64,000 nucleotides of DNA from Isurus oxyrinchus (Eukaryota), in NCBI GenBank assembly GCA_026770705.1, contig JANJGN010000008.1:72292001-72356000 (forward strand), given 5' to 3'. The first letter of the stretch is position 1. Each line of letters starts with the position of its first letter. Positions 1 to 52,535 of this stretch are shown here, one piece after another. The position numbers and the translations under genes are program-made. Below the pieces are notes generated by a model, which was given only the letters and a program-made list of their open reading frames with translations, searched no databases and was not told the DNA's origin.

Positions 1-1110
1 CTTCACATATAGAAGCCATTTCTGTCCACTTTCTTCCATAATATTTTCAAGGTCACCTTGAAGTTATTTCATAAATTGTGGTAAATGCATTTCTCATAAG
101 TAAATGCCCATCTTTTTGAGATGCATCTTGCTTGTATCTCAAGAAACATGATAACTTCACATGGCAATTTGAGGATCATTTGTAATTTGTGACTTCACTC
201 ATGGAAGTGCCAGACTAAATGCTGTTTGAGCAATTTTAAAGGAAGTTTACACGTTTTGAAATGGTGACAATTTAATTTTGAAAAAAAGTGAAATATCAGC
301 ACTTAAATTCTTATTTATGTTCGCACAAAAAATACATAACAAACAAGAACGATATGTTCATAGATTTTATTAGTTATATAGCACTTGTTGGGAGTATAAA
401 TGCTGTGTCTGTATTTTGATAAATATTGGCTTACATTACATAATTTGTATAATGTAACAGTTCAATTTATTAAACTTAATAAAATTAGTTTGTGCATTGA
501 ATATCGTTTCCATGACTTCCTGTTGCGATTTCTCTATTTGACCAAATAAAATGCCAAGATCGGAAAGTGAGGGAGGAACTTCAATGTCTTGGGACAACCG
601 TACAACAAGAAAGAATGGCAGTGGGTCTGCCACTGGCTGTAGCATCTGGAAAAACCACCTTCTATATTTTATAGAGCTACTGCTGAGATTGGTGTTGCCA
701 TCAGCAGCAACAATACAATGAAAAGCGCAATAGAATTGTGCAGTTCGTAATGCTCATGATTATATACGGGTCAGCTCTTTGAGTAAAAATATCAGCAGTC
801 TCTGTTGGCATTGATGCACTTTGGTAAACACAACAGTAGCAATTGTGCATGTGGAATGTGACCCATGCATAAAGTTCAGGGTCTTTGAAACAATTCTTTT
901 CTTTGCAGTGAACTTTGTACACTAAAATGATTAGCGTATTTTATTAGGTTTAAGAAAGATGGCTAAAAATCGATGATTAAAGTTCAGCTGAAACATAAAT
1001 TAAAGATTGAGATAAAAACAAAGAAAACTGCGGATGCTGGAAATCCAAAACAAAAACAGAATTACCTGGAAAAACTCAGCAGGTCTGGCAGCATCGGCGG
1101 AGAAGAAAAG

Positions 1111-1149
1111 AGTTGACGTTTCGAGTCCTCATGACCCTTCGACAGAACT
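1111..1149 (-). ncRNA. Hammerhead-like motif, inverted-arm copy
   Basis: Reverse complement of 4086-4124. Confidence 0.7.
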
Positions 1150-1539
1150 TGATTTCGAGTCCAAGAAAGAGTTGAAATATAAGCTGGTTTAAGGTGTGTG
1201 TGTGGGGGGGCGGAGAGATAGAGAGAGAGGGAGGTGCTTGTGTAGACAAACAAGCAGTGATAGAAGCCGATCATCAAAAGATGTCAGCAACAATGGTACA
1301 AAAGAACACATAGGTGTTAAAGTTAAAGTTGGTGATATTATCTAAACGAATGTGCTAATTAAGAATGGATGGTAGGGCACTCAAGGTACAGCTCTAGTGG
1401 GGGTGGGGGGAGCATAAAAGATTTTAAAATATTTAAAAATAATGGAAATAGGTGGGAAAAGAAAAATCTATAAAATTTATAGGGAAAAAAAAAGGAAAAA
1501 GGGGGGAAACAGAAAGGGGGTGGGGATGGGGGAGGGAGC

Positions 1540-1932
1540 TCACGACCTAAAGTTGTTGAATTCAATATTCAGACCGGAAGGCTGTAAGGTGCCTAGTCGG
1601 AAGATGAGGTGTTGTTCCTCCAGTTTGCGTTGGGCTTCACTGGAACAATGCAGTAAGCCAAGGACAGACATGTGGGCAAGAGAGCAGGGTGGAGTGTTAA
1701 AATGGCAAGCGACAGGGAGGTTTGGGTCATTCTTGCGGACAGACCGCAGGTGTTCTGCAAAGCGGTCGCCCAGTTTACGTTTGGTCTCTCCAATGTAGAG
1801 GAGACCACATTGGGAGCAACGAATGCAGTAGACTAAGTTGGGGGAAATGCAAGTGAAATGCTGCTTCACTTGAAAGGAGTGTTTGGGCCCTTGGACGGTG
1901 AGGAGAGAGGAAGTGAAGGGGCAGGTGTTACA
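1540..1932 (-). pseudogene. Second (inverted) copy of the PLE GIY-YIG endonuclease domain
   Basis: ORF 1540-1869 translates identically to the C-terminus of ORF 2512-3696; it lies in the inverted arm. Confidence 0.92.
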
Positions 1933-3696
1933 CTGACCTCTACCTCGCGGAGGCTGAGCGTCAACTCGCAGACACTTCCTCCTACCTCTCCCTGGACCAT
2001 GACCCCACCACTGAACATCAAGCCATTGTTTCCAGGACTGTCACTGACCTCATCTCCTCTGGGGATCTCCCTCCCACAGCTTCCAACCTGATAGTCGCCC
2101 AACCTCGGACGGCCCGCTTCTATCTCCTACCCAAAATCCACAAACAGAACTGCCCCGGTAGACCGATCGTCTCAGCTTGCTCCTGCCCCACAGAACTCAT
2201 TTCTCGTTATCTTGACTCCCTTCTCTCTCCCCTTGTCCAGTCCCTTCCCACCTACATCCGTGATTCCTCTGACACCTTACGTCACATCAACAATTTCCAG
2301 TTCCCTGGCTCCAACCGCTTCCTCTTCACCATGGACGTCCAATCCCTCTACACCTCCATCCCCCACCAGGATGGTCTGAGGGCCCTTAGCTTCTTCCTCG
2401 AACAGAGGCCCGAACAATCCCCATCCACCACTACTCTCCTCCGTCTGGCTGAACTTGTTCTCACGTTGAACAATTTCTCCTTCAACTCCTCTCACTTTCT
2501 CCAAATAAAAGGTGTGGCTATGGGTACCCGCATGGGCCCCAGCTATGCCTGTCTCTTTATGGGGTATGTGGAACACTCCTTGTTGCAGTCCTACTCCGGC
2601 CCCCTTCCACAACTTTTTCTCCAGTACATCGATGATTACTTCGGTGCCGCTTCATGCTCTCGTCGGGACTTGGAAAAATTTATTAATTTTGCTTCCAATC
2701 TCCACCCCTCCATCATTTTCACGTGGTCCATCTCTGACACTTCCCTTCCCTTCCTTGACCTCTCTGTCTCAATCTCTGGTGATAGACTGTCCACCAATAT
2801 CCATTACAAACCCACCGACTCCCACAGCTACCTCGACTACAGCTCCTCACACCCCGCTTCCTGTAAGGACTCCATCCCATTCTCCCAGTTCCTTCGCCTT
2901 CATCGCATCTGTTCCGATGATGCTACCTTCAAAAACGGTTCCTCTGACATGTCCTCCTTCTTCCTTAACCGAGGTTTTCCACCGACGGTTGTTGACAGGG
3001 CCCTCAACCGTGTCCGGCCCATCTCCCGCGCATCCGCCCTCACGCCTTCTCCTCCCTCCCAGAAACATGATAGGGTCCCCCTTGTCCTCACTTATCACCC
3101 CACCAGCCTCCGCATTCAAAGGATCATCCTCCGCCATTTCCGCCAACTCCAGCATGATGCCACCACCAAACACATCTTCCCTTCACCCCCCCTTATCGGC
3201 ATTCCGTAGGGATCGCTCCCTCCGGGACACCCTGGTCCACTCCTCCATCACCCCCTACTCCTCAACCCCCTCCTATGGCACCACCCCATGCCCACGCAAA
3301 AGATGTAACACCTGCCCCTTCACTTCCTCTCTCCTCACCGTCCAAGGGCCCAAACACTCCTTTCAAGTGAAGCAGCATTTCACTTGCATTTCCCCCAACT
3401 TAGTCTACTGCATTCGTTGCTCCCAATGTGGTCTCCTCTACATTGGAGAGACCAAACGTAAACTGGGCGACCGCTTTGCAGAACACCTGCGGTCTGTCCG
3501 CAAGAATGACCCAAACCTCCCTGTCGCTTGCCATTTTAACACTCCACCCTGCTCTCTTGCCCACATGTCTGTCCTTGGCTTACTGCATTGTTCCAGTGAA
3601 GCCCAACGCAAACTGGAGGAACAACACCTCATCTTCCGACTAGGCACCTTACAGCCTTCCGGTCTGAATATTGAATTCAACAACTTTAGGTCGTGA
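1932..3696 (+). pseudogene. PLE reverse transcriptase-GIY-YIG endonuclease polyprotein, 5'-truncated, one +1 frameshift
   Basis: Frame reads from 1932 (TDLYLAEAERQL..FYLLPKIHK..GRPIVS..MDVQSLYTSIP..GVAMGTRMGPSYA..YIDDYF). Frameshift in the C7 run 3186-3192, then CxxxxCxxC linker and VYCIRCSQCGLLYIGETKR..RFAEH..GLN endonuclease to the stop at 3696. Confidence 0.93.
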
Positions 3697-4085
3697 GCTC
3701 CCTCCCCCATCCCCACCCCCTTTCTGTTTCCCCCCTTTTTCCTTTTTTTTTTCCCTAGAAATTTTATAGATTTTTCTTTTCCCACCTATTTCCATTATTT
3801 TTAAATATTTTAAAATCTTTTATGCTCCCCCCACCCCCACTAGAGCTGTACCTTGAGTGCCCTACCATCCATTCTTAATTAGCACATTCGTTTAGATAAT
3901 ATCACCAACTTTAACTTTAACACCTATGTGTTCTTTTGTACCATTGTTGCTGACATCTTTTGATGATCGGCTTCTATCACTACTTGTTTGTCTACACAAG
4001 CACCTCTCTCTCTCTATCTCTCCGCCCCCCCACACACACACCTTAAACCAGCTTATATTTCAACTCTTTCTTGGACTCGAAATCA

Positions 4086-4124
4086 AGTTCTGTCGAAGGG
4101 TCATGAGGACTCGAAACGTCAACT
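4086..4124 (+). ncRNA. Minimal type I hammerhead ribozyme-like motif in PLE 3' region
   Basis: AGTT-CTGTCGA-A-GGGTC(ATGAG)GACTC-GAAA-CG-TC-AACT: stem I AGTT/AACT, stem II GGGTC/GACTC, GAAA, palindromic ACGT in place of stem III, GUC cleavage triplet. The core differs from CUGANGA at position 6. Confidence 0.72.
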
Positions 4125-4899
4125 CTTTTCTTCTCCGCCGATGCTGCCAGACCTGCTGAGTTTTTCCAGGTAATTCTGTTTTTGTTTTATAAATTAAAGA
4201 TTGTCTAGGGAGATTACAATACTTATAGTACATAAAATATGGTGTATTATTGCGCTTTTGAACAAATGTGAGGAAAACACTAGACTTTTTAAGTTACTCG
4301 ATAACGATAACAAAAAATAATATAGGATGACATTCATAAACTAATATGTGTGCATGCTTTCAGATGAAATTTTGGGACTCTGGTCCCAATTTCCAATGCA
4401 TGGGGATGAAGGTGAAGGAATAAAAAAAGGTAAATTTTTGGGGGGCGGGCAGAAATCAAAATTTTTGGCTGACCTTGGATCTGCCATGTTTCCTGTCCCA
4501 TTCTGCACCCGGAAAAAATGTGCCAGCACACTGTTTAATGCAGCCATCCGGGGAAAGCATTTCTGCAATTGTCAACTAGTATTATCAGCGTAACATAGGT
4601 GAACTTGACCTAACCTGCACAAAAGAACAGGAAATTTTAAACACAAGCTACTTCTAGCGTATTTGAGTCTCCGCAATCTTCAATATTGGTTTTAAAATTG
4701 TTTTGCCCAAAGTTAGCTCCATCCACAAAATCGCATCCCAGATTGAAGTAGGATGGTTGAGTATCTGCCGCCTCCGCCCATTTACGACTGTTTGAGGGTT
4801 TTTTTTAGGTGTACGAGAACTAGTAGGTGTGCTTGTGAATTTTTTCCATATTAATATTTATTAAATCTGATAGGGGAATAAGCAGAAATTTAGAAACTT

Positions 4900-5140
4900 A
4901 TTTAATAAGACAGTGGGTATGATGTGGAACTCACCATCACAGGAAGTGGATAAGGCAAATAACTTAGGCACTTTCGAAAGGAAACTAGATAGCCTTTTGG
5001 GAGAAATGGGACTAGAAAGATGCTGAAAGGTTATGATGAGGTTGATGGATAAGAGGAGATATGTGTGCAGTGTAAACATCACAGACTAGGTGGGGCTGAA
5101 TGGCTTGTTTCTGCGCTGTATATTCTTTGTAATTCTATCA
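4900..5140 (+). mobile_element. Degraded CR1-type LINE 3' end
   Basis: ..GTGGGTATGATGTGGAACTCACCATCACAGGAAGTGG..AAAGGAAACTAGAT.. (WNxLP..FKxxLD tail), followed by a GGGCTGAATGGC 3' UTR motif. Confidence 0.6.
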
Positions 5141-17070: not shown

Positions 17071-17519
17071 TCAGTGTTCTCTAAATTGATCATTTTACTG
17101 CAGCTCCGACAGGGGAAATGTCTTGACACCCTTGGTAATAACTTAACAATTGAAAGGAACAAGTAGCGGTAATGAGACAGAAATACATTTTAACTTAGAC
17201 CTCTTTACAGGAGTGATCTCTGATAATCAGTTGTGTCTGTTGCCTATTAGAACTGAGGTCATGGAAAAATCAAATATAACACAAACAAAATTGAAATAAC
17301 GTATTCGGGAATCTGGGCCATCAGTGAGTTTATTCTGTAACACTGTTTTTGCCTTAAATTACTAGCACAATCATTATCTTTGCTTTATTCATTAACTTCT
17401 CAATAAGTATCTGCTGTTCTTAATGGTTTGAATATAGTTGGTTTCTTTAACTCACGTGGATGCTACACCAGGGCTCACGTTTGCCATTATTTTCTGTTTT
17501 AATTTCATTTGTGCTGGAG

Positions 17520-18949: not shown

Positions 18950-20134
18950 GTATTGTGTAGCAATGTGGTTTAATCTGGGTTAGTTCGGCTTACTTTCTTT
19001 TAGATGAAATTTTTGTTAAGTTGATATACCCGAAGTTGGTTTATTGTTTTCATGGTATAACAATTTATTGTAATTTTAGTTTGTTATTAGTTTATATATG
19101 TTTTCAAATGGAACTTGCATGAAGGCATTTGATTCGGGAAGTAAACTTGCTCTGGCAATTCTCTAGAAAAGTGAGAGCAGCAATTTCATTGATACTGGGC
19201 CTGTCAGAGGCACCATTATGTATGCTGATTTCAGCAGATTTGAAATCCTGCTGGTCCTGAAATGGCGGCGAATTTAAATCGACTAATTTAAATGCATTTT
19301 CTGTTTTTGTTTCATATTTTCTGAAACTGTAGTATTTTGTTTTCTTATATTGCGATTTTCAATCTGATCATGCCCAGTTATGAAATTAAATTCTAAGAGG
19401 CCTAATACCAGCCAAAATAACCAAGAAAACTGGATTGTCATAAAAATTCAACTGGCTCATTAATATGCTTCAGGAAAGAGAACCTGTTACTAGCACCTGT
19501 CTGGCCCACATTCTACTCTCAAATTAGGTGGTTGGTTTCTAATACCCTCTGAGGAGGTCTAGCAAGTCACTTAGTTGTGCAAGCAATTACTTCAAGAAGG
19601 TGGGCGGAATTTTCTGTGCACACTGGGGTCAGGCGTGTTCAGAGGTTTGAGCAGACAATATGGCAAGAAGGCCAAAAATTGATTTCATAGTGTTGTGAAA
19701 CCAGTTTGCAATCCTTCGCTCCGCCCGTCAGTGGTGGCTGCATTTCCCACTGTTGGACATCGGGAACCTCATTGTACTACATCTGCATGTCATTATAAGG
19801 CCAGCCTGCCGGAATCATCCCTCCACACTGGATCATCCACTCACGCCAGCATGATTGCATGCTGGTGCAGAACATATCTTGACAAGCATGGTGTGCAGAA
19901 GTTGGGACTTACCGCCAGGGCATTGCTCACATGGCGGAAATCTAAGGAGCAGAAGCTGTTGGAGCCCGATAGCAATGGCAGACTGGAGGAACGTCCATGG
20001 CACGCTGGTGGATTCTCATGGACATGACACAGCTGCGAAGCAGCAGAAGTTGGAAAGCCACCGTTGAGGGTCTGCTCACGATGATGGTCGAGGTGGTGGA
20101 CAGGAAAGTCCAGCTGTGTTTTGGAGAGGAAGGT

Positions 20135-24257: not shown

Positions 24258-25152
24258 ATAATTTCAGTTGACTAATGTAATCACTGAAAAGGTTGATTGT
24301 CAGAACAGTTATATTTAATTAAATAACACATAACAAAAGGACATGTGGCAAGTTTGCTTTTGAGAGGAATTCCTTGGATTAAAATGTTCTTTGTTAAAAC
24401 ATTGATCTGGATTAAGCGGTAAAAATAATGTTGGGGCTATTGTACTGTTATTACAGAGTAAACTGGACAGCAACTTATGCTGGCTGCACATGTGCAGTTA
24501 AGTGTGGAAACCAGGAAGTTGTCTGAGTTGCCCTGCTCCTCCAGAAGTTTTTGCACAAACTGTATATTAATGAGAGATTCATACATATAACTGCATGAAG
24601 TTGGGGCACTTAGTTGATGGATACTACTTACTAACCATGAAATAAAAAAATTCAGGCTTGCCCGTTCAAGTGTCAGGGAATTTATCAATGGCATGATAAA
24701 TCTTGATTACTATCAAACATCTTTCTGGCACTGAAAATTAACTTTCAAAATTGTGGAGAATTATTCCTTCAGGTTTTGATTATTTCTTTCTGTCTCTTAC
24801 CTCTCTCAATCTCACCTTTCTTTCCCTTTCTTTATTTCACTTTCTGTACACAATTTTGCATTGAATTAAATCTCTAATTTATATGCAGTCTAAACCAGGA
24901 AGTGCAAGGATTCTTCAATCTGATTGCTTAAGGAGGCATACCATTACTTGTCCAGTTCACACAGGCCAACAGTCTCCTGTGGAGTGACACATACGGTTTT
25001 AACTACCCAATGATTGCAAGTTGCAATGCAAAAGCCCACAGAACATTTGTGGGAAGTGTAAGTTTGCAGCTAATCGCAAAATACAGACCAAAACTTTGAA
25101 AAGTTATTCATTTTGGAGCTATGAGCATCACTAGCAAGGTTAATATCTATTG

Positions 25153-25391
25153 ATAAAAACAAAAAACTGTGGATGCTGGAAATCCAAAACAAAAACAGAA
25201 TTACCTGGAAAAACTCAGCAGATCTGGCAGCATCGGCGGAGAAGAAGAGTTGACATTTTGAGTCCTCATGACCCTTCAACAGACCCTTCAGTTCTGTTGA
25301 AGGGTCATGAGGACTTGAAACGTCAACTCTTTTCTTCTCCGCCAGTGCTGCCAGACCTGCTGAGTTTTTCCAGGTAATTCTGTTTTTGTTT
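25153..25391. mobile_element. 239-bp fold-back mini-PLE (two tail-out 3' ends)
   Basis: Arms ~25186-25283 and ~25293-25391 are reverse complements, same family as 1010-4188; 13-bp TSD TTAATATCTATTG at 25140-25152 and 25392-25404. Confidence 0.9.
25290..25328 (+). ncRNA. Hammerhead-like motif in mini-PLE
   Basis: AGTT CTGTTGA A GGGTC ATGAG GACTT GAAA CG TC AACT. Confidence 0.6.
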
Positions 25392-26148
25392 TTAATATCT
25401 ATTGTCCTACCCTATTTGTCCCTGAGAAAGTGGTGGTGAGCTGCCTTTTTGAACTGCTGCAGTCTATGTGGTGAAATGCTGCTATATTGCTGTTAGGTGA
25501 TGAGTTATAGGATTATGACCCAGCATCCATGAACTCAAGCCTAGATGATGTGTGCCTTGAAGGTGAACCTGGAGATAATGGTGTTTTTCTGCATTTGGTG
25601 GTCTTGTCCTTCAAATCGTATGGACACAGGTTTTGTAATACTTTAGAATATCATACTGCCTTTCTTTATTCAAGTACGTGGACAATACTAGATTCTGTGT
25701 AGTCTACATTTGGAATTCTGATTGACTATTCTCTTCATGTGCATGAGGAGAAAGAAGAAATATTTGAAATAGTTCTATTTATATCACGCCATAAATCATG
25801 GAAACAGCTTAAGCATTTTGCATGGTGATTGTTCTACTGACAAATATAACCGCTTTTCTGATGAGGAACATTCCACAAACAGTACTGACATGTATGAGTG
25901 GTTACTAATATTTTGGTGATATTGCTGAGAGGAATGTTAGCCAGGAATGTTATTTCCTGCTCATCAAGCTATTCAAGCTAGTGTTATGGAACCTGTAATG
26001 CCCAACTGAAAAGACAGATAAGATCTTTGATTAATTTTTCAGATAAAGGACAGAAATTCCATCGGTGCAGCACTCCTTCACTACCATACTGGAATGCCCA
26101 CCTGGTTTATGTGCTCAAATCTTGTTTTCTTCTTGGTGGAAAAGTTAA

Positions 26149-28007: not shown

Positions 28008-28087
28008 CATGTTTTAAAAAAAATGTAAATATTTTAAAATTGTTTTTTGTCTGGGACATGTACTGTCATTCCAATACCAAAGGACTT

Positions 28088-28314
28088 TGCGGGAAAAAAA
28101 AAGAAAAGGTTGGAAGTATTCAGCAGGTCTGGCAGCATCTGTGAAGAAAAGAAGCAAAGTTAATGTTTCAGGTTTCATCAGATGAAAGGTCATCAACCTG
28201 AAACATTACTTCTGTTTCTTTCTCTACAGATGCTGCCTGACCTGCTGAACATTTTCAGTATTATTTGTTTTTATTTCGGATTTCTAGCATCTGTATTATT
28301 TTGCTTTTGCCTTA
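28088..28314. mobile_element. Older fold-back mini-PLE of a related family
   Basis: CAGCAGGTCTGGCAGCATCTGT..AATGTTTCAGGTT mirrored by AACCTGAAACATT..ACAGATGCTGCCTGACCTGCTG; centre TTTCATCAGATGAAA; possible TSD AAAGGACTT (28079-28087, 28315-28323). Confidence 0.72.
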
Positions 28315-29229
28315 AAAGGACTTAACTAATCACATGAATTTAATGAAATAGTTAATGCTAAAGCTAACATTGCCTTTAATGGTATGAAACCTTGCATTTT
28401 GTAACACCTAAAAATTTTGGTCTCTGGAACTGTATTTAGAAAGCACTCCATTACTAATTGGCATCAGACAATTGTCATTTCATATCAGTACTAGCTAGCT
28501 GGTGTGGGATAAAGTGTCCGGAATATGCTTCAGATCAATTTAGTGTGATATCATGTCATATAACAGACAATGGGCATGTTAAATTAGATAAGAGTCCAGA
28601 CAATTATCTAGATTTTTCAATTAGTATTATTTTAATCAAATACACTTATATTTATCTATGTCCCTCATGTACAGCCAATGAATTATTTTTAAGTGTAGTC
28701 ATTGTTGTAATTAGGCAGATACAGCAGTCAATTTACACACAGCAAGGTTTCATGAAGTGATACAAGATAAAGAACTAGCTTGGTATTGATGGTGTTGGTT
28801 AAGAGGTAATTGATGGTCTAGACATTGGAAGAGCTTTCTAATTGTTTTTTGAATTATACCACTGGATCTTTTACTCTATCCTGAAAATTCAAAAAAGGCT
28901 TTAGTTTAATGCCTCATTTGAAAGTTGATACCTCTGTCAATGCAGCACCCACTCTGTCATTTTAGCTGTGACTTTATACCTGGTGTGGGGCACGAACCTA
29001 CGACCTGATTCAGAGGAATGAGCATGACTACTGTGCCAAGCTGATATCACTTACATTTTTAATGTAATGATTGCACCTGTATAGGATTACCCTTCAATAA
29101 ATGATGGCACCATTATTTAGCAGCATTCTTAATAAACAGCTATCTAATACTTTATTCGAAAATTTGATTCATCTACAAGTTTAACTAAAAGATGTAGGAA
29201 ATAGTCTGTCATCACAGTGGCAGCTTGTT

Positions 29230-39069: not shown

Positions 39070-39513
39070 GAGAAAAAAAAGTGACAGGTGGCATTCACAT
39101 TTTTGCTCAAACCTCGATCCAGGGCGGGATGAAATCTCCGTGGGGAAATAAAATAAAATGAGGTATCTGGGGACTGATTTTTTTTAATGAGGTATACTTT
39201 CAGGTGCTTGATTGTGCTATATTGACATATTTTGCAGCATTTTATTGTGTCCTTTAGCCTATGGAAGCCTGTAGTTCTCTGGGGCAGCTGTCTGCTTTCA
39301 GGGAGGTCTCTTGAAGCGCTCATTCACACTCTTGGTTACGTCAGTGCCTGCCCCCATTCTGGCATCACTGAGCATTTCAGTGCGTGTTTCACACTGGCTG
39401 GTCGTTAATTGGCGTGAAATCGTGGCCTGGGGCTGATCACGGCTGGTGGCTCATTTCTCGTCCGCTCTCAGGCCAGCCGATCATGCGTGCCCAACGACCA
39501 AAAAATTCAGGCC
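39070..39513. mobile_element. Partial Harbinger MITE (right part)
   Basis: AAACCTCGATCCAGGGCGGGATG motif shared with the 23567/27325 MITEs; right TIR AAAAATTCAGGCC. Confidence 0.7.
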
Positions 39514-41063
39514 TCTGTTACAGAGATATGTTGTGGTTATTTGCTACAGTGTTCTGCCTATATGTTGGCTGATGAGGTTGTGTTCAGGAGCCCACTATTC
39601 CACAACGATGTTTCAGTTGCTCTGTGAACTGGTAGGAATGCTTCTTGCTGATTCCCTGAGGTGAAAGGTCAGATGTGATGAGTTAGATTAAGGTTAGCCT
39701 GAGGGTGGCCAATGAACCAAAGTCAGGTTGCAATTTTGAGATATTAAACTTTAAAGATTTTCATTGTCAACTACTCAACATTAATTTTAAGCCACTCTCA
39801 CTGAATTATACCAGTGTAATATTTCCATTAGGGATTTATTTCTGTCAGGGGGAGTTATTAGGATTACTTTCCAATGCACGACCTAACAAGAAATTTGACA
39901 GCCATGTCAGACCACCCCTCTTTCATTTACAACGTTAGCTATCCTCTTGTCCCTTGACTGTTTTTACATCCAACACCTTCAGTGTAAACTGAAGATTAAA
40001 CAAATAATTTATGGTGCCTGTGTCAAACTGCATTTTTTAACACCTTTCCATGCTTATTTAGACAAATGACAGCTATCAGCTATGAATAACATACAATAAA
40101 ACTACCTCATCTACCACCATTAAGAAATTTTGTCTCTGCAAGTAAAGTAATTACTGACACTTACTGCCCAAGCTTTAACATGCAATTAAATACCTCACAT
40201 TTTAATTTTTCTTTAGGGATTCACTGGAATGTTAGAAATAATAACTAAATAGCTTCATGGGTAAAAACATGATCTATGATCTTTATTAGTTACTTGCTGG
40301 ATGAAATTACTGTGAATGTAATAATTTAGTGTATTAATAGTAGAGTATTTTCCCTACACTCTCAAAATTTCCTCTTGGGCCCAAACTATTCTATAATGCA
40401 CAGACCTACCATATTACAGAATATCTTAATTTACCTCTGCCTCTCTTGTAGTCCATTATAATTGTGGTATTAAGGTTGCGCGGCAGAGAGTGTAGAGCAG
40501 TAAAAAGGAATTGTAAAAAATGACCCAGTTGTTCTGGCCTGTGCAGTAGCATGGGTGCATTAGCCTATCTTGTTGGGGGCCGATCGCGGCTGGTGGCCCA
40601 TTTCCTGTCTGCTCTCGGGCCAGCCGATCGTGCATGCCTGACGACCGAAAAATTCAGGCCTCTATTACAGAGATATGTTGTGGTTATTTGCTACAGTGTT
40701 CTGCCAATATGTTGGCTGACGAAGTTGTGTTCAGGAGCCCACTATTCCACAACGATGTTTCAGTTGCTCTGTGAACTGGTAAGAATGTTTCTTATGATTC
40801 CCTGAGGTGAAAGGTCAGATGTGATGAGTTAGATTAAGGTTAGCTTGAGGGTGGCCAATGAACCAAAGTCAGGTTGCAATATTGAGATATCAAACTTTGA
40901 AGATATTCATTTTAAGTCACTCTCACTGAATTATATCAATATAATGTTTCCAGAAGATAGTTATTAGGATTACTTTCCAATGCACGACCTAACAAGAAAT
41001 TTGACAGCCATATCAGACCACCCCTCTTTCATTTACAATCTTTTATCTTGACTGTTTTTACAT
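39428..41063 (+). repeat. Local direct duplication of ~0.5 kb (39428-39969 and 40575-41063)
   Basis: Long colinear matches (e.g. TACAGAGATATGTTGTGGTTATTTGCTACAGTGTTCTGCC; GAGGTGAAAGGTCAGATGTGATGAGTTAGATTAAGGTTAGC), with small deletions in copy 2. Confidence 0.92.
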
Positions 41064-42000: not shown

Positions 42001-42129
42001 CCATTATCAAAGTTCAAATGTTTTTAGACTACTGGATAATTATTAATGTTATATAATAGAATATTAGTTATAAGATTACAGAATAGAATATTAATAGAAT
42101 AAATGGTCATTTGGTAGTACAGACCTTGA

Positions 42130-43285
42130 GTATTGCTGAAAAAAAAGACATGTCAAAGCTTTTTGACTTGCACTCATCAGGACACTTCGCAAGAATATCA
42201 ATACAAGGTGAAAACAACAATTTATACTGTATGGGAAGAGAGTGCTGATTGGTTGGCAAATGGACTCTGGTACAGGCATTGCTATGCAGAATGCACCAAA
42301 TTGATGATGACTAGTTAACTGCCAAGCATTGTTTGAAATTTAAACCAGGCAGATTGATCCTGATTGGTCAAGGCATTGCCTTGAGGAATGAGTCAGCAAA
42401 TGGCTGTCACTTATTTTGTTTAACTGAAATTGGTGCAATGGGTGTACATGTTCTTTGTGTCTGCAAAGAACAGAGCCCTGTGTATTAATATATGTAACTT
42501 CCAGTACACGCAAATATGCCACACTGCGAGCCCAACTGATAATCTTAAATTGGTCGTCAGCGTAATTCTTAGCAAACTGAGAATTAGTTAGCAAATGTTG
42601 TCCAATTGTGGAATCATATCTAATGTTGGACATTGTGTTTTGAATTTTGCAAGTCTGTACTTTACCTGTTGCATACTGCAGCTCAGACATGCTGTTTGAT
42701 ACAATTCGCCAATCTTTAGGTCTACATACCTAGCGTCACACTGGCACCGAAATTCATATACCACATTACTAATTTGTGTGATAAGTAGGATGCCTTTTTG
42801 GCTTGATGGCAATGCCCTATTAGTGGTGATTATCACTCATGTTGTTACTGCATAGTAGCAGTGTGAAACAGCCCGCTGCACCTGTTGCTCAAATTTTTGA
42901 GATACCTTGCCCTTTCAGGGTAACCTGAGGTAGACTGGGCACTTTTCAGGGCTGAAAGTGATGGCCTTGGACCTGTTCATGTGTTTGTGTGAAATATAGA
43001 GCAAAATGATCTGATCAGGGCAACCATTATCCAGCAAGATGCCTTTGATGCACTCTATTTCAACATCAGGCCTGTATGGTGAACAAATGACTCGGGTTCT
43101 ATTTACAAGGTTGCTGATAAGACGGATTTTATAGTGCGTGGATTCTTACAGTTCCACATGCTATAAGATAGGTCTTATCGGCAACCTTCCAAATAGGGCA
43201 TGGGCCGTTTGCTCACCATGCAATCTTGATGCTGAAATAGGGTGCATCAAAGGCATCCTGCCGGATAATGACTGCCCTGAATTAT
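42130..43285 (-). mobile_element. Old PLE of a different lineage (RT C-terminus + GIY-YIG), with fold-back at its 5' end
   Basis: SNVVYEFRCQCDARYV, DSTIGQHLL..FKII..LEVTYI..LC; YKIRLISNLVNR..ICSP..ILLDNG; inverted copy of ~43010-43139 at ~43140-43285. Confidence 0.82.
42151..42184 (-). ncRNA. Decayed minimal hammerhead motif at 3' end of old PLE
   Basis: TGTC-CTGATGA-GTGCAAGTC-AAAAAGCTTT-GACA: canonical CUGAUGA, stem I TGTC/GACA, palindromic AAGCTT; GAAA box eroded. Confidence 0.55.
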
Positions 43286-44205: not shown

Positions 44206-44636
44206 GGAGGTGATCAAAGCTTAACAGAGGACCCACACATTTGACTAGTTTTGCATCAGATTTTTAAATCAAGCCTTTAATTCATGTTTTGAAAGGTAAG
44301 AAATTTCCATCTCAAAGAACCTGTGGGGTGAAAAAAAGGCTGTCCGACTGCTGTAGACGGAGTGTCATTGGGAGAATCAGCCATTGCCAGTGCACACCTG
44401 CCCCTTGTTGCTGCGTTTTTGGGCCATGCTCACTGATCCCTGAGCAGGTAGACTCCCATTTCACCAATAACACTCCTGAGCCTCCCCTCAATATCATACC
44501 TGCCTGAGGAGGAGTGCTATTGCAGTCCAATGCTTATTTTTGTTTATTTCTAATGGTATATGAGCATTACTGCCAAGGCCGACATTTAGTGGTGAGCAGC
44601 CTTCTTGTGGTGAAGCTACCCCTACAGTGATTTGTT

Positions 44637-47600
44637 TTTTTTTGAAAAATATATTTCATTCATAAAATATGTGAAAAAACATTACAAAACATTTCAAAAT
44701 AGCCATCCCAAAAAGTGCAACATTAATCATTTCAACCAGGTCATTATCGTGAGAGAGTGCTATGGTATTTAAGTTATCTACATAGATCATTGTTGCACTC
44801 TGAGGTGCTTCAATACAATTGTGATACATGCAGTATTCGCTGCATGCATTCAGTGTGAGTCTTACAACCTGATGGGTCTATAGAATTTCCAGTCCCTTGG
44901 CACACTATGGCTGAAAGCTCTTAGACAGTGACCTTTCCCCATTACGCCTTTACGGCGGCTGCCCCAAGCTTTAGCGCATCCCTCAGCACATAGTCCTGGA
45001 CCTTGGAATGTGCCAGTCTGCAACACTTGGTTGGGGATAACTCTTTGCACTGGAAGACCAACAGGCAGACCAAAGAACGTCTTTCACAGAGTTGATGATT
45101 CTCCAGCTGCAGTTAATTTTTGTCTCGGTGTGTCCCCATGGGAGAGTCCTGTGTCAAGGAGCCACTCGTGATGAACCTCAACAAAAACCACTGTATCCCT
45201 CTCCAGACCTTCTTTGCAAAGGTACATTTCACAAGGAGGGGAACAACGGTCTCTTCCCCACGACAGTCAACTCAAGGGCAACATGTGGAGGGGTGAGACT
45301 CCTGGGGTATAGGAAGGATCTGACGGGGAGGGCCTTTCTCACCACCAGCCAAGCTATGTCTTGGTGCTTGTTGCAAAGTTCTGGTGATGAGGCATTCTGC
45401 CAAATGACTTTGACAGTCTGCTTGGGAAACCATCTGACAGGATCCAGCATCTCCTTTTCCAGCAGGACCTCTAGGATGTTACGTGCCGACCACTGCCGAT
45501 GGACTTGTGGTCAAAAGTATTTCTCTGCATAAATTTTTCCACGAGGGACAGGTGGTACGGCACGGTCCAACTACTTGGAGTGTTCCGTGGCAGCGTGGCC
45601 AGACCCATCCTTTGTAACACCAGGGACAGGTAGAACCGCAGCACCTAGGGACACTTGGTTTTTGCATACCCAGAGTCTATGCACAGCTTGATGCAGCCAC
45701 ACACAAAAGGTGGCCATCAGGATGAGGGCGATGTTGGGTAAGTTTTTTCCCCCCTTTATCCAAAAGTTTGTACAATTTGCTCCTGCGAACACGATCTATT
45801 TTCACTCTCCAGATAAAGCAAAAGATGGCTTGGTTGATCGCCACTGTGCAGGAGTGAGGAATGGGCCAGACCTGCGCCACATACAGCAACACCGAAAGTG
45901 CCTCACACCTGATGACCAGGTTCTTATCCGCAATGGAGAGGGAGCGTTACCCCCATTGCTCAGTTTTCTTTTCACCATAGCCACTCGCTCCTTCCAGTTT
46001 CTATCGCATGTCCTGGTCCCTCCAAACCACATCCCCAGCACCCTCAGGCAGTCTGACCTGATGGTGAAGGGGCAAAGGATCGGTCAGCCTAGTTCCCAAA
46101 GAACATGGCCTCGCTGTTGCCACGGCTCCTGAGGTCAGTTCGAACTGGTCACAGATGTTGATCAGTTTGCACACCGACAGCGGATCTGAGCAGAAGACGG
46201 TGACATTGTCCATGTGCAGGGATGCTTTGACCTGAGTGTCTCCACTGCCTGGGATTTTCACTCCTCTTATGCCTGGATCCTGCCTGATGGACTCAGCAAA
46301 CACACAAATAGGACAGGGGAGAGAGAGCAGTCCTGTCCAACTCCAGATTTAATTGAAAAGTTTTATGATTCCCACCCATTGATTGAAACTGCACTACAGA
46401 TCTTTGTGTGGAGCAGTTGGATCCCAAACTCCAATTTGGAGAGTACGTGTAGGTGTGCGAAACTCTGTCAAAGACCTTCTCCTGGTCCATCTGATGAGGC
46501 AGGTGTCTACACCCCTGTCTCGTACATAGGCATTTGTATCCCTGAGTAGCGTGAGGCTGTCAGAGATCTTCCTGCCGGGAACAGCGCAGGTCTGGTCAGG
46601 GTGGATCACCAACTCCAGACTTGACCCCACTGGCGATGACCTTGGACAGAACCTGATAGTCCTCATTCAAAAGTGAGATAGGTCACCAATTTCTAATTTC
46701 CTCCTTTTCCCCCTTCCGCTTGTAGACGAGGGTAATGATGCCTTTCCTCATGGATTCTGACATACTGCTGGCCAGAAGCAAACTCTCGTACACTTCTAGC
46801 AGATCTGGGCCGATCTAGCCCCACAGAGCCAAATACAACTCAGATGGTAAGCTGTCGCTTCTGGGAGTTTTATTCTTCTTGAAGGACTCAAGGGCTTTAG
46901 TCAGTTTGTCAGGAGTTAGCAGTTTGTCCAGACTTTCCCGTGAACTGTTTTTTAAGAATTCCATGATAGAGGACAGAAAGGACTGGGAGGCTGTGCTGTC
47001 TGTGGGCTTCAGGTCATACAATCCAGCATAAAAGGATTTTCTGATTCTCAAAACATTACTGATCCATCTTCTTCCTTCAGGTTGCTGATCACAGAGCTCT
47101 CTATGTATCTTTTGGAAGAAGAAACGTGAACACGTCTCATCCTGCTCCACAGAGACTACTCTGGACTGGAAGATGATCTTGGAGGCCTCCAAGACAAAGA
47201 GTGAGGCTTGCTGGCTCTTTACCTCTTGGAGTTCCTCCTTGACATTGACCCCCATCGCTGCAGCTGGAGCAGGTTCTGCATGTTTTTCTGAAGTTGGCAC
47301 CTTTCCCTCTGTTCCTTTCTAGCCTTCTGGATGCCTTTGAGAATAAACAAACTTCTTGATGTTCTCCTTGATCACTTCCCACCAGTGTGTCAGGGACTCG
47401 GAGGGGTTTCATGGTTCTCCAACCTTTGCAATCCCTCATAAGTTCCTCAATGTTCTCTGGGGTCAGCAGTTGCAAGTAGTTCAGCTTCCAAGTCCCCCTG
47501 CCAAACCTCTGGTCTTTCTGTGAGTGATAGTTGGCCAGTAGGAGGCAGTGGTCAGAGATATTGGTGGATCTGACTGTGAATGCTCGGGACACAAACAGGA

Positions 47601-47924
47601 AATCTATTCTGGAACAGATGGACCCATCTGGCCGCAACTAGGTATATCTTTGTCTGCTGGATTGCTGAAGACGTCGTGCAGCTTGGCATCCTTTACTATT
47701 TCCATCAGGAATCTGGACATGGCATCCAGTCTGCTGTTGGCCCTGCCGGATTGTCCAGTCGCATCACCGATGCCACTGAAGTCACCGCCCAGAATGACTG
47801 ACCTGGAAGCTGCCAGCAGTAGTGGGAGCTGCTAAAGGACCGCCAGCCGCTTGCTGTTTTGAGCCGGGGCGTACATGCTATTTAACCGGAGCAGAGCATT
47901 CTTGTATGATACGCTTGCTATGAG
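44637..47924 (-). mobile_element. Tx1/L1-clade LINE, 5'-truncated ORF2 (APE + RT), decayed
   Basis: YAP..ILGGDF..SRIDFLFVS..SDH (endonuclease); HPDQTCAVPGRKISDSL..DQEKVFDRVSH..LSP..KASLHMDNVTVF (RT); T-tract at 44637 (poly-A on -); 10-bp TSD GTGATTTGTT at 44627-44636 and 47925-47934. Confidence 0.92.
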
Positions 47925-48889
47925 GTGATTTGTTATAGCATTTTGAACAACTGAGTGGCCAATTGCTGATCATTTCAGTGGGCAGTCAACCACTGCGGGT
48001 CTAGAGTCACATATAGAGTCATAGAGGCCCTTTGGCCCATTGAGTCTGCACTGGTCAGACAAGTACCTAATTATTCTAATCCCATCTTCCAGCACTAGGC
48101 CAGTAACCTTGTATGCCATGGCATCGCAAGTACACATCCAAATACTTTTTAAATGTTATGAGGGTTTCTGCCTCTACCACCCTTTCAGGCAGTGAATAGA
48201 CCAGGTAAGGACAGCAGATTGCTTTGTCTAAAGAACATGAATGAATCAGATGCGTTTTTACAACAAACAAATAGTTTCATGATAACCATTATTGATTTTC
48301 TTTCAATACAGATCTTTTCAGTCAATTAAATTTGCAAAACAAAATGCCCAGCTGCGATTTGAATTTTGTGTCTCTGGATTAGTAGATCAGGCCTTAAGAC
48401 TACCAGTCCAGTTACATGACTAAATGCTCCATCTGGTGCCATATGGTAGTATAGTAGAGAATAGAAAGACTAATTGTGCAGTCCTTCTGTGGGAAGTTGC
48501 TCTGTAGGCATCTCTAGTTCTGTCATTCATTCTGAGGCTGACTGAACTGTATATTAGAAACCAATAAACGTGGGGCATGGAATCCTTCACACCAGCCACC
48601 AGAATTGGAAGCTTCTCGACACACCCTTCAATAGCTTCAATAATTTCTTGTGCATCAAAAACATTTTTTTAAAACCTACACTCTGGAGATCAGAATCCTT
48701 GCACTCAGCTGTGGATGGAGGTGATCTTTAATCTTCAGCCAGATACCTTCTACCGCTCAGGAAACATCACCATCTACTCCTGTTACTCAGAGACTAACTG
48801 TCTAAACCCCTCATGATGAGTGACTCTTCATGTGGGTGTTAGGCATTGTGAGGCTGAATGACTTGTTTCCAGGTGATGCACTGCAGAAA

Positions 48890-49240
48890 CTCACCTATTA
48901 TGAACATTCTCAGCCAACTTTTTTCTGTTGATGAAACAGCAGTTCTCACTGCTCCCTGGCTTCCCTCACTGGCCCTGGTCCCCAGACTCAGTTATGGCAT
49001 TCTTAATGACAGTGGCAGGAGAGAATGGGCCTGGGATATTCTGTGTAATGTTGTGCTTATCCTTTTTCTTCTCATTGGAGGATGGTGTGGAATGTTTGAA
49101 GGATTTTTCAGACTGAATAACAACTTGTTGAGCTGTGTTGTGGACACTCCTACTGTGGTCATTAAGTCCTGAATTGGGACTTGAACCTAGGACTTTTAGC
49201 TTAGAGACAGGAGCACTAACCAACTAAGCCACAAGGCCTT
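48890..49240 (-). mobile_element. Deu-domain/tRNA SINE
   Basis: Reverse strand GTGGCTTAGTTGGTTAGTGC..GGTTCAAGTCCC tRNA-like head. Similar decayed copies near 25760-26120, 28670-29050 and 32800-33070. Confidence 0.6.
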
Positions 49241-50033
49241 CAGTGTGGAATGGGGGATATAATGTGTATGGCATGAGAGGGATGATAGGACATGGGATGG
49301 GGATTTAAAGAAGGATTGTTGCAATAAAGATACTAATTTCACCACAAGTGTTTTGCAGTTCTCTGCTTGTTTGTAAGCATTCCTTGGATGGATTAACTTA
49401 TTACCATCATCAAATTAAGATATCAAATAAAGCAATACATTGAGTTCTAGAGAACAGTGGGAATCATAGCCAGGCCCCTTGCCTCTCTCAGTCAGGTGCC
49501 TCATCTTTACAACTCCAATAAGCTATAAACAAGACATTTACATTTGTAATTTTTGAAAACAGATCCATAGCAAGTCATAATTTGTTTTGAAAAAGATGCT
49601 GTTAATGCATTCTGAAGCCAGATGGCGAAGTAGGAAACCAAATGCCAATCTTTTACTTAGCACTAGATTTATTTACAGAATGCAACATTACATATGTATG
49701 CTTCCTGCCTTTCCAACATCCTGTCTCCCAGAAGTATCTCTTTATACTCGCTTGACTCATGGGAGAAATAACGCTAAATGAATGATCAGCTCCTCTTAAA
49801 AGAGGCAATTCAATGAAGTTGTAACGAAAACCAAAACTTTAACGGAAACTTATCAAATCAAAATAATATTTCTGAGGGTGATGATGCATTCCACCCCAAG
49901 TCTCAGTTTATATTCCTTTGAAACAATGAGAAATAAATAAACAAATAAACAAATGATCAACCCCTTTGAGTTGGGGGGTGGGGTGTGAGGCGAGGTGGTG
50001 GCATACTTAAATTTCAATCCGGATGTATGCTAC

Positions 50034-50949
50034 TGTTAGAAACAATGTATAATTTTTAAATTGAATATCTCATATGTGTGTGTGAGAGTGTTAGGAAAGC
50101 TAAAATGGTTTCAGTTTCATTTTTGGTTGTTTATGAGCCTTGGTTCCTAGAAGTCTGGGGTTGGGCCTGTGACTGGAAGGTCAATCTTTTGGGTTTGTTT
50201 TTATATATATTTTTAATGCGTTTTTATAACCCCTGAAGTTAAAGAGTTGGGTTTAAAAGGGGTTAGATGTTTACTGATTTTTGGGAAAAAAGTAGAAAAA
50301 TCTGAGCTGTTGCCTAGTGGTCAAGCAACACAGATTCAGAGAAAGTTAGGGAAGAGTTCAATGTGTGTCAGAGAGTGAAGACAGGGATTTTTCAGCTTTC
50401 TGAGAAGAGAAAAGTACAAGGCTAGAGAGACAGTAGTTAACTGAATAGTCAGTTATAGGACTCAATAATGTGATTAGTTTAATGATGTTGCTACTGAAAT
50501 AGTGAGTTTAAAGTATGGTTATTTTTGGGTGTCTTGGGGAAAGACACAAGTTGGATGAGAAGCATTAAGTGAATGCTGAAGAATTCAGCAGAAGAAAACC
50601 ATTTGCACATGTGCCAGCCCCAAACAAGGAGACTTTGTGTCAAGCTAGTGGTAACTCTTCATTGGTTTGTGTCTGTAAAGATATTGCTGGGTAAAGGAAT
50701 ATTGGAAAATTGAGTTGCCTTCTTGTGTTTGTATTGAGATCTTGCCAACATTTTTCTCTGGTGTAATATGGTTTATTTTTCTTGTTTTAATAAATATTTT
50801 ATTCCTCATGTTAAAAGTTCATCAGCAGACCTCTGAATTTGTTCAGTAAGTTTCCTCCACTGTTTCTAAGAAAAAGTTTGGATCTGTCAAGCCAGGTTTC
50901 ACTATGGGATCTGACTTGTCCAATATTAACATAAACTGGGATCGTAACA
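50034..50949 (+). mobile_element. Solo LTR
   Basis: TGTTAG..CGTAACA; 4-bp TSD CTAC (50030-50033, 50950-50953); AATAAA ~50789. Confidence 0.85.
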
Positions 50950-51187
50950 CTACTACTATAGAGCCCAAGTCCTGAACCCAACCGCTTATGTATCAGAGGA
51001 TGGTCCACTAGCAAACTAAAAACATGGCTCCTCCAACAGTGCAGCACTCCCTCAGTAATCTGCTAAAATGCCAGCCTAGATTGTTGTGCTCATGTTCTGA
51101 GGTGGGTTTTTAACTCAGCACATTCCAGTTTAGAGGGCAAGCATTAATAACTGAGCCATGGTAGTCTCAAATCCACTGCCTGAGCTA

Positions 51188-52535
51188 AGTCTCTTTAAAC
51201 CTCTTTTGAAGAAGTTTCTCTTGAGCAAACTAAAACAAATCGCCAAATTACCTGATTAATAAAACAAAGGAAATTTATCAAATTAAAATAACGTTCCCAG
51301 GGCTCATGATGTACTCTAGCCCCTGCGGTGCTCACCGGTCAGGGAAAACTTCTAGCATAATGGCAGATGCCGCATGCTCCCTCTCCAAGAACATTTGGGC
51401 ACAGACATGACCATGTTAGAGGGACAGGGAATTGAGTCGAATGACCCCCTCAAATGCCTGTTGCCTGGACCTGTTAATGACCACCTTGGTCAGGAGTCTG
51501 TCTCACTATATTCTTTTGAGTAAACAAGAAACAAATGAACAAATAATCAAATGATAATCCCTTAAGGGGCATTGAAACTAAAACAAAACTACAAAGGAAA
51601 CTAATCAAATTAAAATAATGTTGCCGGGGCTGATAATACACTCCGGCCCCTGTGGCGCCCATGGTTATGGAAGGCCTCAAGCGTACTAGTGGACACTGTG
51701 TGCTCTCTCTCTCTCTCTCCAAGGGCACCTGGACATGAATGTAACCATGGGAGAGGGGCAGACAGTTGGGTCAGTCCACCCTCAACTGCTTAGACCTGTT
51801 AATGACTATATTGGCTACGAGTCTATCTTTATGCCATTTTGAGTAAATAGAATCAAATGAACTAATAAATTAACTAGTTGAAAGCCCCTTAAAGGGGCAC
51901 TGTAACAAAAGAAAAATCAAATCTTTAAAGGAAACTTATCAACAAAAGTGACATTTTGAGGGCTGATGAAGCACTCCAGCCCCTGCGGGCACCCACCATT
52001 CGTGGAAGGCCTCAAGCGGTGGACCCGCAGCTCCCTCTCCAAGGACACCCGGACGCGGATATAACAATGGAAGAGGGGCAGGCAATCAGGTCAAACAATC
52101 CCTTCAACCATCTGCTACCTGGATCTGTTAATGGCCACGATTCTCTCTTTATACTCCTTTGAGTTTACCAATAAAACTACTTAACAAGCTGACAGCCCCT
52201 TAAAGAGGTACTGTAACACAAAGACAAAACTTTAAAGGAAACTTTAACAAATCAAATTAGAATAAAAACAAAAAAACTGCGGATGCTGGAAATCCAAAAC
52301 AAAAACAAAAACAGAATTACCTGGAAAAACTCAGCAGGTCTGGCAGCATCGGCGGAGAAGAAAAGAGTTGACGTTTCGAGTCCTCATGACCCTTCGACAG
52401 AACTTGAGTTCGAGTCCAAGAAAGAGTGGAAATATAAGCTGGTTTAAGGTGTGTGTGTGGGGGGTGGAGAGAGAGAGAGAGAGAGAGGAATTAGAATGTT
52501 GTTTCTGGGACGAGTCTCTCTATAAAATCCTCGAG
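51188..52535 (-). repeat. Head-to-tail array of Tx1-type LINE 3' ends (3 units of ~320 bp plus one short unit)
   Basis: The long units encode on - a decayed ORF2 C-terminus (AINRS..CLPLF..SLEREH..EAF..WAP.G.ECII) plus a 3' UTR with a GCCCCTTAAAGGGGC-type hairpin; related short units at ~49735-49970. Confidence 0.75.
52264..52488 (-). mobile_element. Short young PLE 3'-end insertion (same family as 1010-4188), with hammerhead-like motif at 52366-52404
   Basis: Near-identical to 1013-1230; 9-bp TSD AATTAGAAT (52255-52263, 52489-52497). Confidence 0.9.

Follow-up and report, generated by a model that had tools for sequence, protein, structure and literature searches.

Insertions of a Penelope-like retrotransposon in Isurus oxyrinchus DNA share two end positions that probably mark the borders of the PLE tail

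Four insertions (E1 to E4) in the window, the 64,000-nucleotide stretch of Isurus oxyrinchus DNA analysed here, are in all likelihood 5'-truncated copies of an endonuclease-containing Penelope-like retrotransposon (PLE) of the Neptune/Nematis type, with the long and short ends of their arms representing the two borders of the PLE 'tail' (Table 1). E1, E2 and E3 each consist of two arms placed head to head, E4 has a single arm, and each insertion lies within one TSD. The four insertions provide seven termini, which fall into two clusters: three at a short site and four at a long site that lies 33-37 nt beyond it. Each of the two sites lies within the element's RNA. The asymmetry of the tail between the two ends is an already known PLE signature and not a new one.

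Table 1. Positions of the insertions, their parts and the coding regions in the window
Feature	Position	Strand	Remark
E1 left TSD, 15 bp	995..1009	.	
E1 right TSD, 15 bp	4189..4203	.	
E1 inverted arm	1010..1932	-	5'-truncated, long-site end: 886 nt up to short site + 35-nt tail + 2 nt (1010-1011)
E1 tail, 35 nt	1012..1046	-	between short and long start sites
E1 direct arm	1931..4188	+	5'-truncated, 2258 nt, short-site end at 4188
Minimal hammerhead motif, E1 left arm (putative)	1115..1145	-	own descriptor; core position 6 U not A
Minimal hammerhead motif, E1 right arm (putative)	4090..4120	+	predicted cleavage after 4120, 68 nt before short end
RT part of ORF	1932..3209	+	PF00078 E 4.2e-08; begins just past DKG motif; frame shift near 3190-3200
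ORF C-terminal part: CX4CX2C linker (3289-3315) and GIY-YIG endonuclease with internal CxxC	3199..3696	+	PF01541 E 8.5e-05, motifs
E2 left TSD, 13 bp	25140..25152	.	
E2 right TSD, 13 bp	25392..25404	.	
E2 left arm with 33-nt tail (25153-25185)	25153..25283	-	inner end 1 nt upstream of hammerhead core
E2 centre	25284..25289	.	short local duplication of left-arm sequence
E2 right arm, short-site end	25290..25391	+	hammerhead core begins at 25294, 4 nt downstream of inner end
E3 left TSD, 9 bp	28079..28087	.	
E3 right TSD, 9 bp	28315..28323	.	
E3 left arm	28088..28178	-	of an older subfamily; short end decayed
E3 right arm with 37-nt tail (28278-28314)	28180..28314	+	
E4 left TSD, 9 bp	52255..52263	.	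final 2 nt equal element's terminal AT
E4 right TSD, 9 bp	52489..52497	.	
E4 single arm, long-site end with tail	52264..52488	-	5'-truncated in GA repeat; one additional 6-nt unit at short site
Old copy, decayed RT-EN region	53904..55821	-	74% identity to E1 over 1779 aligned nt
Old copy, decayed N-terminal ORF region	56887..57576	-	starts ~100 nt past long site; tblastn best E 7e-11
Old copy, 5' pseudo-LTR	57681..58228	-	ORF end, 3' UTR, decayed hammerhead, short site + tail; no terminus (read-through)

The asymmetric ends had been pointed out in a sequence-only reading of this stretch, which correctly placed the long end on one arm and the short end on the other in both the 3.2-kb E1 and the 239-bp E2; the long-ended arm is the left one in both. 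The arms of E1 are identical over their terminal 177 nt and differ by two substitutions and two indels, the latter in simple-sequence runs. The tail sits on the shorter (~920-nt) arm, the 2258-nt arm has none, and 1.37 kb is unique to this tail-less arm; with the tail on the shorter arm, plain fold-back copying cannot have made either arm from the other. Judged from the old copy, the arms overlap by ~2 nt at the junction, where there is a 7-nt palindrome. Positions 1033-1039 of the tail are complementary to 1089-1095 at the RNA level and can pair.

E2 and E3 are 227-239 bp long and have different centres, each found once in the 64-kb window. The E2 TSD would be 12 bp if T25392 were assigned to the element, in which case its short end is identical to that of E1. 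The centre of E2 is typical of templated end joining, by which it may have arisen, and its two arms have in common a variant base in the hammerhead core, located at a CpG. E3 belongs to an older subfamily (its terminal ~100 nt are 61-71% identical to those of the other arms), and ~5 nt after its decayed short end have no assignment. It was right to see a long/short asymmetry in E3 as well (tail on the right, short end on the left), but the mirror orientation is simply that of E3 in the window. The E3 centre (28179) folds back on itself over 13 nt, within the putative hammerhead core. As a lead, both mini-palindromes break inside the putative hammerhead motif.

These two short insertions had also been described as MITE-like palindromes, which is true of their shape and not of their mobility. 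We regard them as single insertion products that show no sign of moving as MITEs within the window. Their length, inverted arms and TSDs would suit true MITE-like elements that move as units via their inverted ends, but the MITE class calls for a multi-copy, homogeneous family of fixed TSD length that a transposase moves as a unit, and here the centres occur once each, TSD length varies from 9 to 15 bp and the arms are PLE termini; such an origin is very improbable indeed. Non-LTR retrozymes are defined by tandem units in head-to-tail order, each having a type I hammerhead (10.64898/2026.07.22.740005), and the head-to-head arrangement of E2 and E3 excludes them from this class.

E4 ends at the long site, as had been stated, and differs from E1 at 2 of 159 positions. 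The window contains a further, old copy (53904-58228) that was absent from the sequence-only reading. Its RT-EN region is separated from its N-terminal part by a ~1 kb insertion, and the 3' UTR and terminus of the RT-EN region are absent. In a tblastn search with 240 homologues, 57 of them gave 61 matches over 55700-58400. The sequence of the old copy continues through the short and long sites into a stretch homologous to the ORF start, and both sites must therefore be internal RNA positions. The same tblastn read-through argues against counting 57681-58228 as a fifth, long-ended insertion; the flanks of this segment yielded no convincing TSD.

E1 contains one ORF encoding both an RT and, at the C terminus, a GIY-YIG endonuclease (PF00078 and PF01541), interrupted in this copy by one frameshift. 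The CCHH signature of EN+ PLEs, whose two cysteines lie between GIY and YIG, is present, as a CxxC inside the GIY-YIG core and downstream histidines. The CX2-5CxxC linker between RT and EN occurs in E1 and also in all 100 long homologues with a recognisable EN core (120 examined). Going by this motif, the element would belong to Neptune or Nematis, two clades taken together here, as the homologue matches include no clade-labelled reference proteins. Membership of the Penelope/Poseidon clade requires absence of the linker, and the element is thus not a Poseidon, though it appears to work like one (see below). The element's closest named relatives are elasmobranch proteins, and full-length relatives have ~800-950 aa. 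Pseudo-LTRs are inverted in E1-E3 and form a partial tandem in the old copy, the optional 30-40 bp tail at one end is represented by 33-37 nt on four of the seven termini, and the target DNA is AT-rich unique sequence rather than microsatellites.

The long end shifts by a few nucleotides between copies and thus corresponds to a narrow zone, not to a single base. A profile search of the window returned eight strong arms, the eighth being the read-through at 57681-58228 and not a terminus, and no significant arm beyond those eight. For seven ends drawn uniformly from spans of 50, 100 and 200 nt, the simulated probability of two clusters no more than 6 nt wide is 0.007, 3e-4 and 1e-5, respectively. 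All four TSDs are AT-rich and 9-15 bp long, as claimed: their AT content is 0.87, 0.85, 0.67 and 0.89, compared with 0.567 for the window. A shared word of at least 9 nt was present in 0.19% of 19,937 random 25-nt flank pairs and in 0.74% of 5,980 random 45-nt pairs, and one of at least 13 nt in 0.005% of the random 25-nt flank pairs. A nick preference of WWT|G is noted as a lead. Scanning bacterial and archaeal genome contigs with a 21-nt terminal motif yielded four loci, none longer than 35 nt, which we attribute to chance, and no extra copies.

The mechanism we favour is as follows. In the element RNA, reverse transcription would start internally at either of two sites, ~68 and ~103 nt downstream of the predicted hammerhead cleavage position and just before the ORF start. 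The GIY-YIG domain would nick AT-rich DNA on both strands, 9-15 nt apart, and each nicked 3' end could prime cDNA synthesis at either site almost or entirely without base pairing. Priming of a single end would result in a single-armed copy (E4). Two primed ends would result in two cDNAs growing toward one another, whose truncated ends are then joined, through 1-2 nt of microhomology or a short templated patch, into a head-to-head palindrome within one TSD (E1, E2, E3); if both cDNAs stopped early, the product would be a MITE-shaped remnant of 230-240 bp.

The precedent is a Poseidon PLE studied in vitro, in which reverse transcription begins at two adjacent internal RNA sites bracketing the tail and requires no homology; the same enzyme nicks and extends both target strands, and top and bottom strands did not differ in start site (PMC11167929). 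The AT-rich TSDs found here agree with the reported preference for AT / 5'-ATT-3' (PMC11167929), and the PLE tail is known as a 30-40 bp extension, often at one end only of inverted insertions (PMC8557442, PMC3846280). The end positions and the read-through of the old copy constitute a genomic footprint that agrees with internal initiation of this type. By analogy, the E1-E4 family would use two start sites and nick and extend both strands, and both arms would be first-strand cDNAs. The element used in vitro belongs to Poseidon and starts at AC-rich sites, those of E1-E4 being U-rich, which counts against such a transfer. Of the two defined initiation sites proposed from the sequence, one per target strand, the sites themselves are borne out by the seven clustered ends and the Poseidon experiments, but their allocation to strands is not, given p = 0.10-0.125 for three mixed palindromes out of three and start sites that did not differ between the strands in vitro. 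Two-ended integration is likewise retained as the simplest source of head-to-head insertions, without the programmed strand pairing.

Our own hammerhead descriptor found no motif with the strict core, four with core position 6 relaxed and none in each of 10 shuffles. Rfam gave no match at the gathering threshold in the whole window; a search by E-value over 900-4400 gave four weak, unrelated matches and no hammerhead. Hammerhead cleavage is rejected as the cause of either end, because the predicted cut is 68 nt off the short end (upstream of it) and no inner end lies at the cut. The T-tracts correspond to U-rich stretches of the RNA beside the start sites. The RNA past the short site matches the TSD at 2/6 and 3/6 nt, which rules out primer pairing at this site; the T-tracts are therefore not primer-pairing tracts. 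An RNA stem presenting the start sites is weakly supported: the folding z-score is -3.85 for the arm of E3 and -0.2 to -1.2 for the other four of five tail-bearing stretches, and covariation of the tail stem is not significant (1 compensatory pair of 10, a number reached in 203 of 500 shuffles).

Obligate coupling of the two sites, which restates the pairing proposed from the sequence, is a refinement, not a replacement, of the favoured mechanism and on balance unlikely: a protein dimer on one RNA hairpin would make one cDNA per site on opposite strands, so that two-armed insertions would always pair long with short. All three palindromes are indeed mixed, but under independent choice this has p = 0.125 at best, or 0.10 with a long fraction of 5/8 (the latter counts the 57681-58228 arm; the bound of 0.125 is independent of it). 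A dimer is predicted for the Poseidon enzyme, but its start sites did not differ between top and bottom strand in vitro (both PMC11167929). The identity of the E1 arm ends, when E4 differs from E1, and the variant base common to the E2 arms are expected of one template, but a single active source locus or gene conversion would make the arms alike too, and the E2 base lies at a CpG. In E1 and E2 the cDNA begun at the short site extends further than its partner from the long site, as if leading (E3 is ambiguous); the trailing enzyme would, however, be required to displace 886 nt of the leading cDNA. A fuller version has a PLE dimer on one hairpin with one subunit per site on opposite nicks, an obligate long and short pair, a usually longer short-site arm and the hammerhead fold (not its cleavage) as a preferred stop, double early stops leaving MITE-shaped remnants; this we consider doubtful. 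We found no paper in the open-access literature that tests long and short pairing.

Self-priming or fold-back, perhaps on an antisense template, would produce a DNA hairpin, and asymmetric resolution by the endonuclease would then leave one arm with the tail. It has been proposed in PMC3846280, where head-to-head repeats with junction palindromes are argued to be best explained by self-priming on an antisense template, and in PMC8557442, where the tail is attributed to endonuclease-mediated resolution. The small palindromes at the E1 junction (7 nt) and E3 centre (13 nt) fit this proposal, and the latter is such a junction palindrome, which counts against the mechanism we favour. Against self-priming, both ends are start sites of synthesis in vitro (PMC11167929). 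A target-primed cDNA that simply folds back cannot yield E1, with its shorter tail-bearing arm and 1.37 kb only in the other, and E4, with one arm and a TSD of its own, ends at the same long site. Overall, self-priming seems distinctly improbable.

Twin priming is a model for L1 inversions. Acting on one tandem PLE transcript, it would start the first cDNA in the 3' pseudo-LTR, where a source copy with no tail would yield the short site, and the second in the 5' pseudo-LTR, which always has both sites; the asymmetry would be inherited from the source locus. Partial-tandem organisation exists in the window, and the E1 tail is on the shorter, inverted arm as predicted, but the model does not explain why the 5' pseudo-LTR would use the long site three times out of three. 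We think this route rather unlikely. L1 inversions resemble the insertions described here in that both target strands prime cDNA and the head-to-head junction shows microhomology; they are not known to duplicate the 3' end, whereas here both arms carry the same terminal region.

The favoured mechanism has its closest parallel in Poseidon_Ac (PAc) of Anolis carolinensis (PMC11167929). Common to both are a hammerhead, putative in our element, and after it a pair of internal start sites spaced ~35 nt apart close to the beginning of the ORF, with the tail between them, and AT-rich targets with little primer-template homology. By eye, the PAc template likewise shows 7 bp of complementarity between its tail and the upstream RNA, as in E1. 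PAc is a Penelope/Poseidon element with no linker zinc finger and AC-rich start sites 82-89 nt after the cleavage site; our element has the linker, U-rich sites and a long site ~103 nt past the predicted cleavage position. With canonical EN+ PLEs (Pen2a_Av of Adineta vaga; PMC3846280, PMC8557442) it shares a 5'-truncated inverted copy at the 5' side, a 30-40 bp tail at one end, 8-10 bp TSDs and partial tandems forming pseudo-LTRs; it differs in that the inverted arm of E1 (920 nt) reaches the endonuclease coding region and in TSDs of up to 15 bp. The CX2-5CxxC linker before the GIY-YIG domain and the CxxC inside it are shared with the Neptune/Nematis C-terminal EN+ PLEs, the AT-rich unique targets in place of microsatellites being a point of difference. 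Paired minimal hammerheads of Schistosoma mansoni (PMC4209133) lie on opposite strands 100-700 bp apart, and like E2 and E3 they are short inverted PLE remnants, each with a minimal hammerhead (putative in E2 and E3); the passages describing them give no map of their termini, tails or junctions. The formation of inverted insertions is called unresolved in PMC8557442, and PMC11167929 leaves the later steps without validation. If the start sites work as a coupled pair, inverted pseudo-LTRs and the one-sided tail would be explained together, and there would be a route from a retroelement to MITE-shaped palindromes. The insertions described here are a clean instance of the known PLE signature, from a Neptune-type element and hence from a clade that differs from the one studied in vitro.

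A profile search, together with a comparison of the window against itself, returned eight arms of one repeat family. Seven of these are the termini of four insertions of a Penelope-like element (PLE), three of them two-armed palindromes (E1-E3) and one single-armed (E4), and every insertion is flanked by a target-site duplication (TSD). Three arms (E1 right, E2 right and E3 left, the last decayed at its end) stop at a short site, directly ahead of GGATTTC in ORF sense, which is the start of the extension beyond it. The other four (E1 left, E2 left, E3 right and E4) run 33-37 nt further to a long site, whose position differs by a few nucleotides between arms. Within the window, the TSDs and the two end clusters exceed chance expectation; the sequence-only reading had described these two end points accurately. 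E4 carries one additional 6-nt unit precisely at the short site (52296-52312), possibly reflecting slippage or re-initiation there. Weak matches to the tail, the interval between the two sites, at 19297-19348 and 17325-17385 (E 0.05 and 0.13) probably reflect chance similarity of T-rich sequence or very ancient remnants.

Positions of the insertions, the old copy and the nick sites in WWTGT context
Feature	Position	Strand	TSD	Remarks
E1	1012-4188		15 bp
E2	25153-25391		13 bp
E3	28088-28314		9 bp
E4	52264-52488		9 bp
Old copy	53904-58228	-		nearly full-length; ~550-nt 5' pseudo-LTR, decayed ORF, lacks 3' terminus; absent from the sequence-only reading
Insertion in old-copy ORF	~55840-56880			about 1 kb; no convincing TSD
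WWTGT nick sites	1005-1009/4204-4205, 25148-25152/25405-25406, 52261-52263/52498-52499, 990-997

The eighth arm (57681-58228) resembles another long end. We ruled it out as a further terminus because it has no convincing TSD and ORF homology lies just beyond it: homologous proteins align immediately past the arm, at 57576-56887, and again at 55821-53934, beyond the 1 kb insertion (61 matches to 57 of 240 proteins in 55700-58400). On sequence evidence, the arm belongs to an old partial tandem, as its read-through 5' pseudo-LTR. In this old copy the sequence continues past the short site, across the tail and beyond the long site to the ORF start, and both ends are, judged from its sequence, internal sites of the element RNA. 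Its missing 3' end adjoins a degenerate C-rich short tandem repeat (53583-53820). A splice-donor-like motif lies just ahead of the short site in the young subfamily (4166-4175 and equivalents). Acceptor-like motifs occur in the old copy at the 5' edge of its hammerhead and just past the long site, and a short frame begins at an ATG in the outer stem; the leader may contain an intron.

In the coding sequence of the right arm of E1, PF00078 (E 4.2e-08) marks a reverse transcriptase and, downstream of a frameshift, PF01541 (E 8.5e-05) marks a GIY-YIG domain. PLE reverse transcriptases are not known to carry RNase H. Upstream of the endonuclease is a CX4CX2C linker, found in all 100 long homologues with a recognisable endonuclease core (120 examined) and described in PMC8557442 as a mark of Neptune and Nematis that Penelope/Poseidon lack. 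The best named relatives (Chiloscyllium, Mobula, Rhincodon, Hypanus and Stegostoma) are 64-75% identical; among the 120 matches listed, the long homologues reach at most 59%. This comparison makes an elasmobranch host probable. The feature is the tail already described for PLEs, carried in this case by a Neptune-type element.

We consider it likely that staggered nicks provide two 3' ends, each able to prime at either start site. The nicks would lie 9-15 nt apart, and either end would prime cDNA at the short or the long site; one priming event would yield a one-armed copy such as E4, and two would yield palindromes, the cDNAs being joined at their truncated ends. The E1-E3 junctions agree with such joining: the E1 arms overlap by about 2 nt as judged against the old copy, E2 has a small patch of duplicated sequence, and E3 folds back over 13 nt. 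Templated patches are a mark of end joining, and twin priming is a process of L1. E1 speaks against simple fold-back as the source of the palindromes, because its tail sits on the 920-nt arm and 1.37 kb are exclusive to the tail-less 2258-nt arm.

The proposal of one start site per target strand is not established: all three palindromes are mixed, giving p = 0.125 at best, and the in vitro data carry no strand assignment. A single event may nevertheless couple the two sites, which we rate as less likely than not. In favour of coupling, the E1 arms are identical over 177 terminal nucleotides, whereas E4 differs at 2 of 159, and the short-site cDNA extends further in E1 and E2; against it, one active source or gene conversion would also explain the similarity, and E3 is ambiguous as to which cDNA reaches further. 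WWTGT context occurs at four of eight reconstructed nick sites (four of six in the young family) and at 0.64% of positions, but the motif was derived from the same nick sites and computed p-values therefore overstate the enrichment. E1 and E2 have the same 6 nt at the nick from which their long arm was primed.

E2 and E3, the short head-to-head palindromes, have the MITE-like shape claimed for them; nothing in the window suggests that they are mobile as units, since their centres differ and each occurs once. An unrelated 266-bp palindrome (43015-43280, arm identity 77-79%) is probably a true MITE. E4 is inserted at the edge of a tandem array (49827-52265, units of ~320-330 bp), and a direct duplication of about 0.5 kb, spaced 1.15 kb and 84-92% identical, lies in 39429-41063.

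Rfam searches of the window gave no ribozyme match. A minimal-hammerhead descriptor with core position 6 relaxed found four motifs, whereas 10 shuffles gave none. At this position, where A is canonical, the young subfamily carries U (4090-4096, 1139-1145, 25294-25300, 52394-52400); one arm of the older E3 retains the canonical core. The young ribozyme may be inactive despite the recent spread of the family. In E2 and E3, each of the four inner ends falls within the hammerhead region, between -4 and about +18 relative to the core, and lies upstream of the predicted cut; this pattern comprises two events only and was spotted after the fact. Elsewhere, inner ends lie 886 and 2258 (E1), 187 (E4) and 513 nt (old pseudo-LTR) from the short site. 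The centres of E2 (25283-25294) and E3 (28170-28182) are at the core, and in both the predicted cleavage site lies further downstream.

The tail is predicted to pair with RNA upstream of the short site. Support for such pairing is thin: of five tail-bearing stretches, one (that of E3, with z = -3.85) folded better than shuffles, and 203 of 500 shuffles equalled the one compensatory pair in the tail stem.

Inverted pseudo-LTRs and short 3' extensions are among the PLE peculiarities listed in PMC8969392, and PMC4209133 reports minimal hammerhead motifs in PLE pseudo-LTRs. The latter also notes minimal hammerheads paired on opposite strands at distances of 100-700 bp. Head-to-tail retrozymes, as far as the preprint 10.64898/2026.07.22.740005 describes them, are not an applicable model. 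A close parallel is Poseidon_Ac of Anolis carolinensis. According to PMC11167929, its purified protein nicks both strands of AT-rich DNA and extends them, with a preference for 5'-ATT-3', and hammerhead cleavage is dispensable. Synthesis begins at two adjacent internal RNA sites without homology to the nick, and the start site does not appear to differ between the top and the bottom strand. These two sites delimit the tail, and genomic ends coincide with them. By eye, the Poseidon_Ac tail has a similar complement in the upstream RNA, and the WWTGT context is consistent with its ATT preference.
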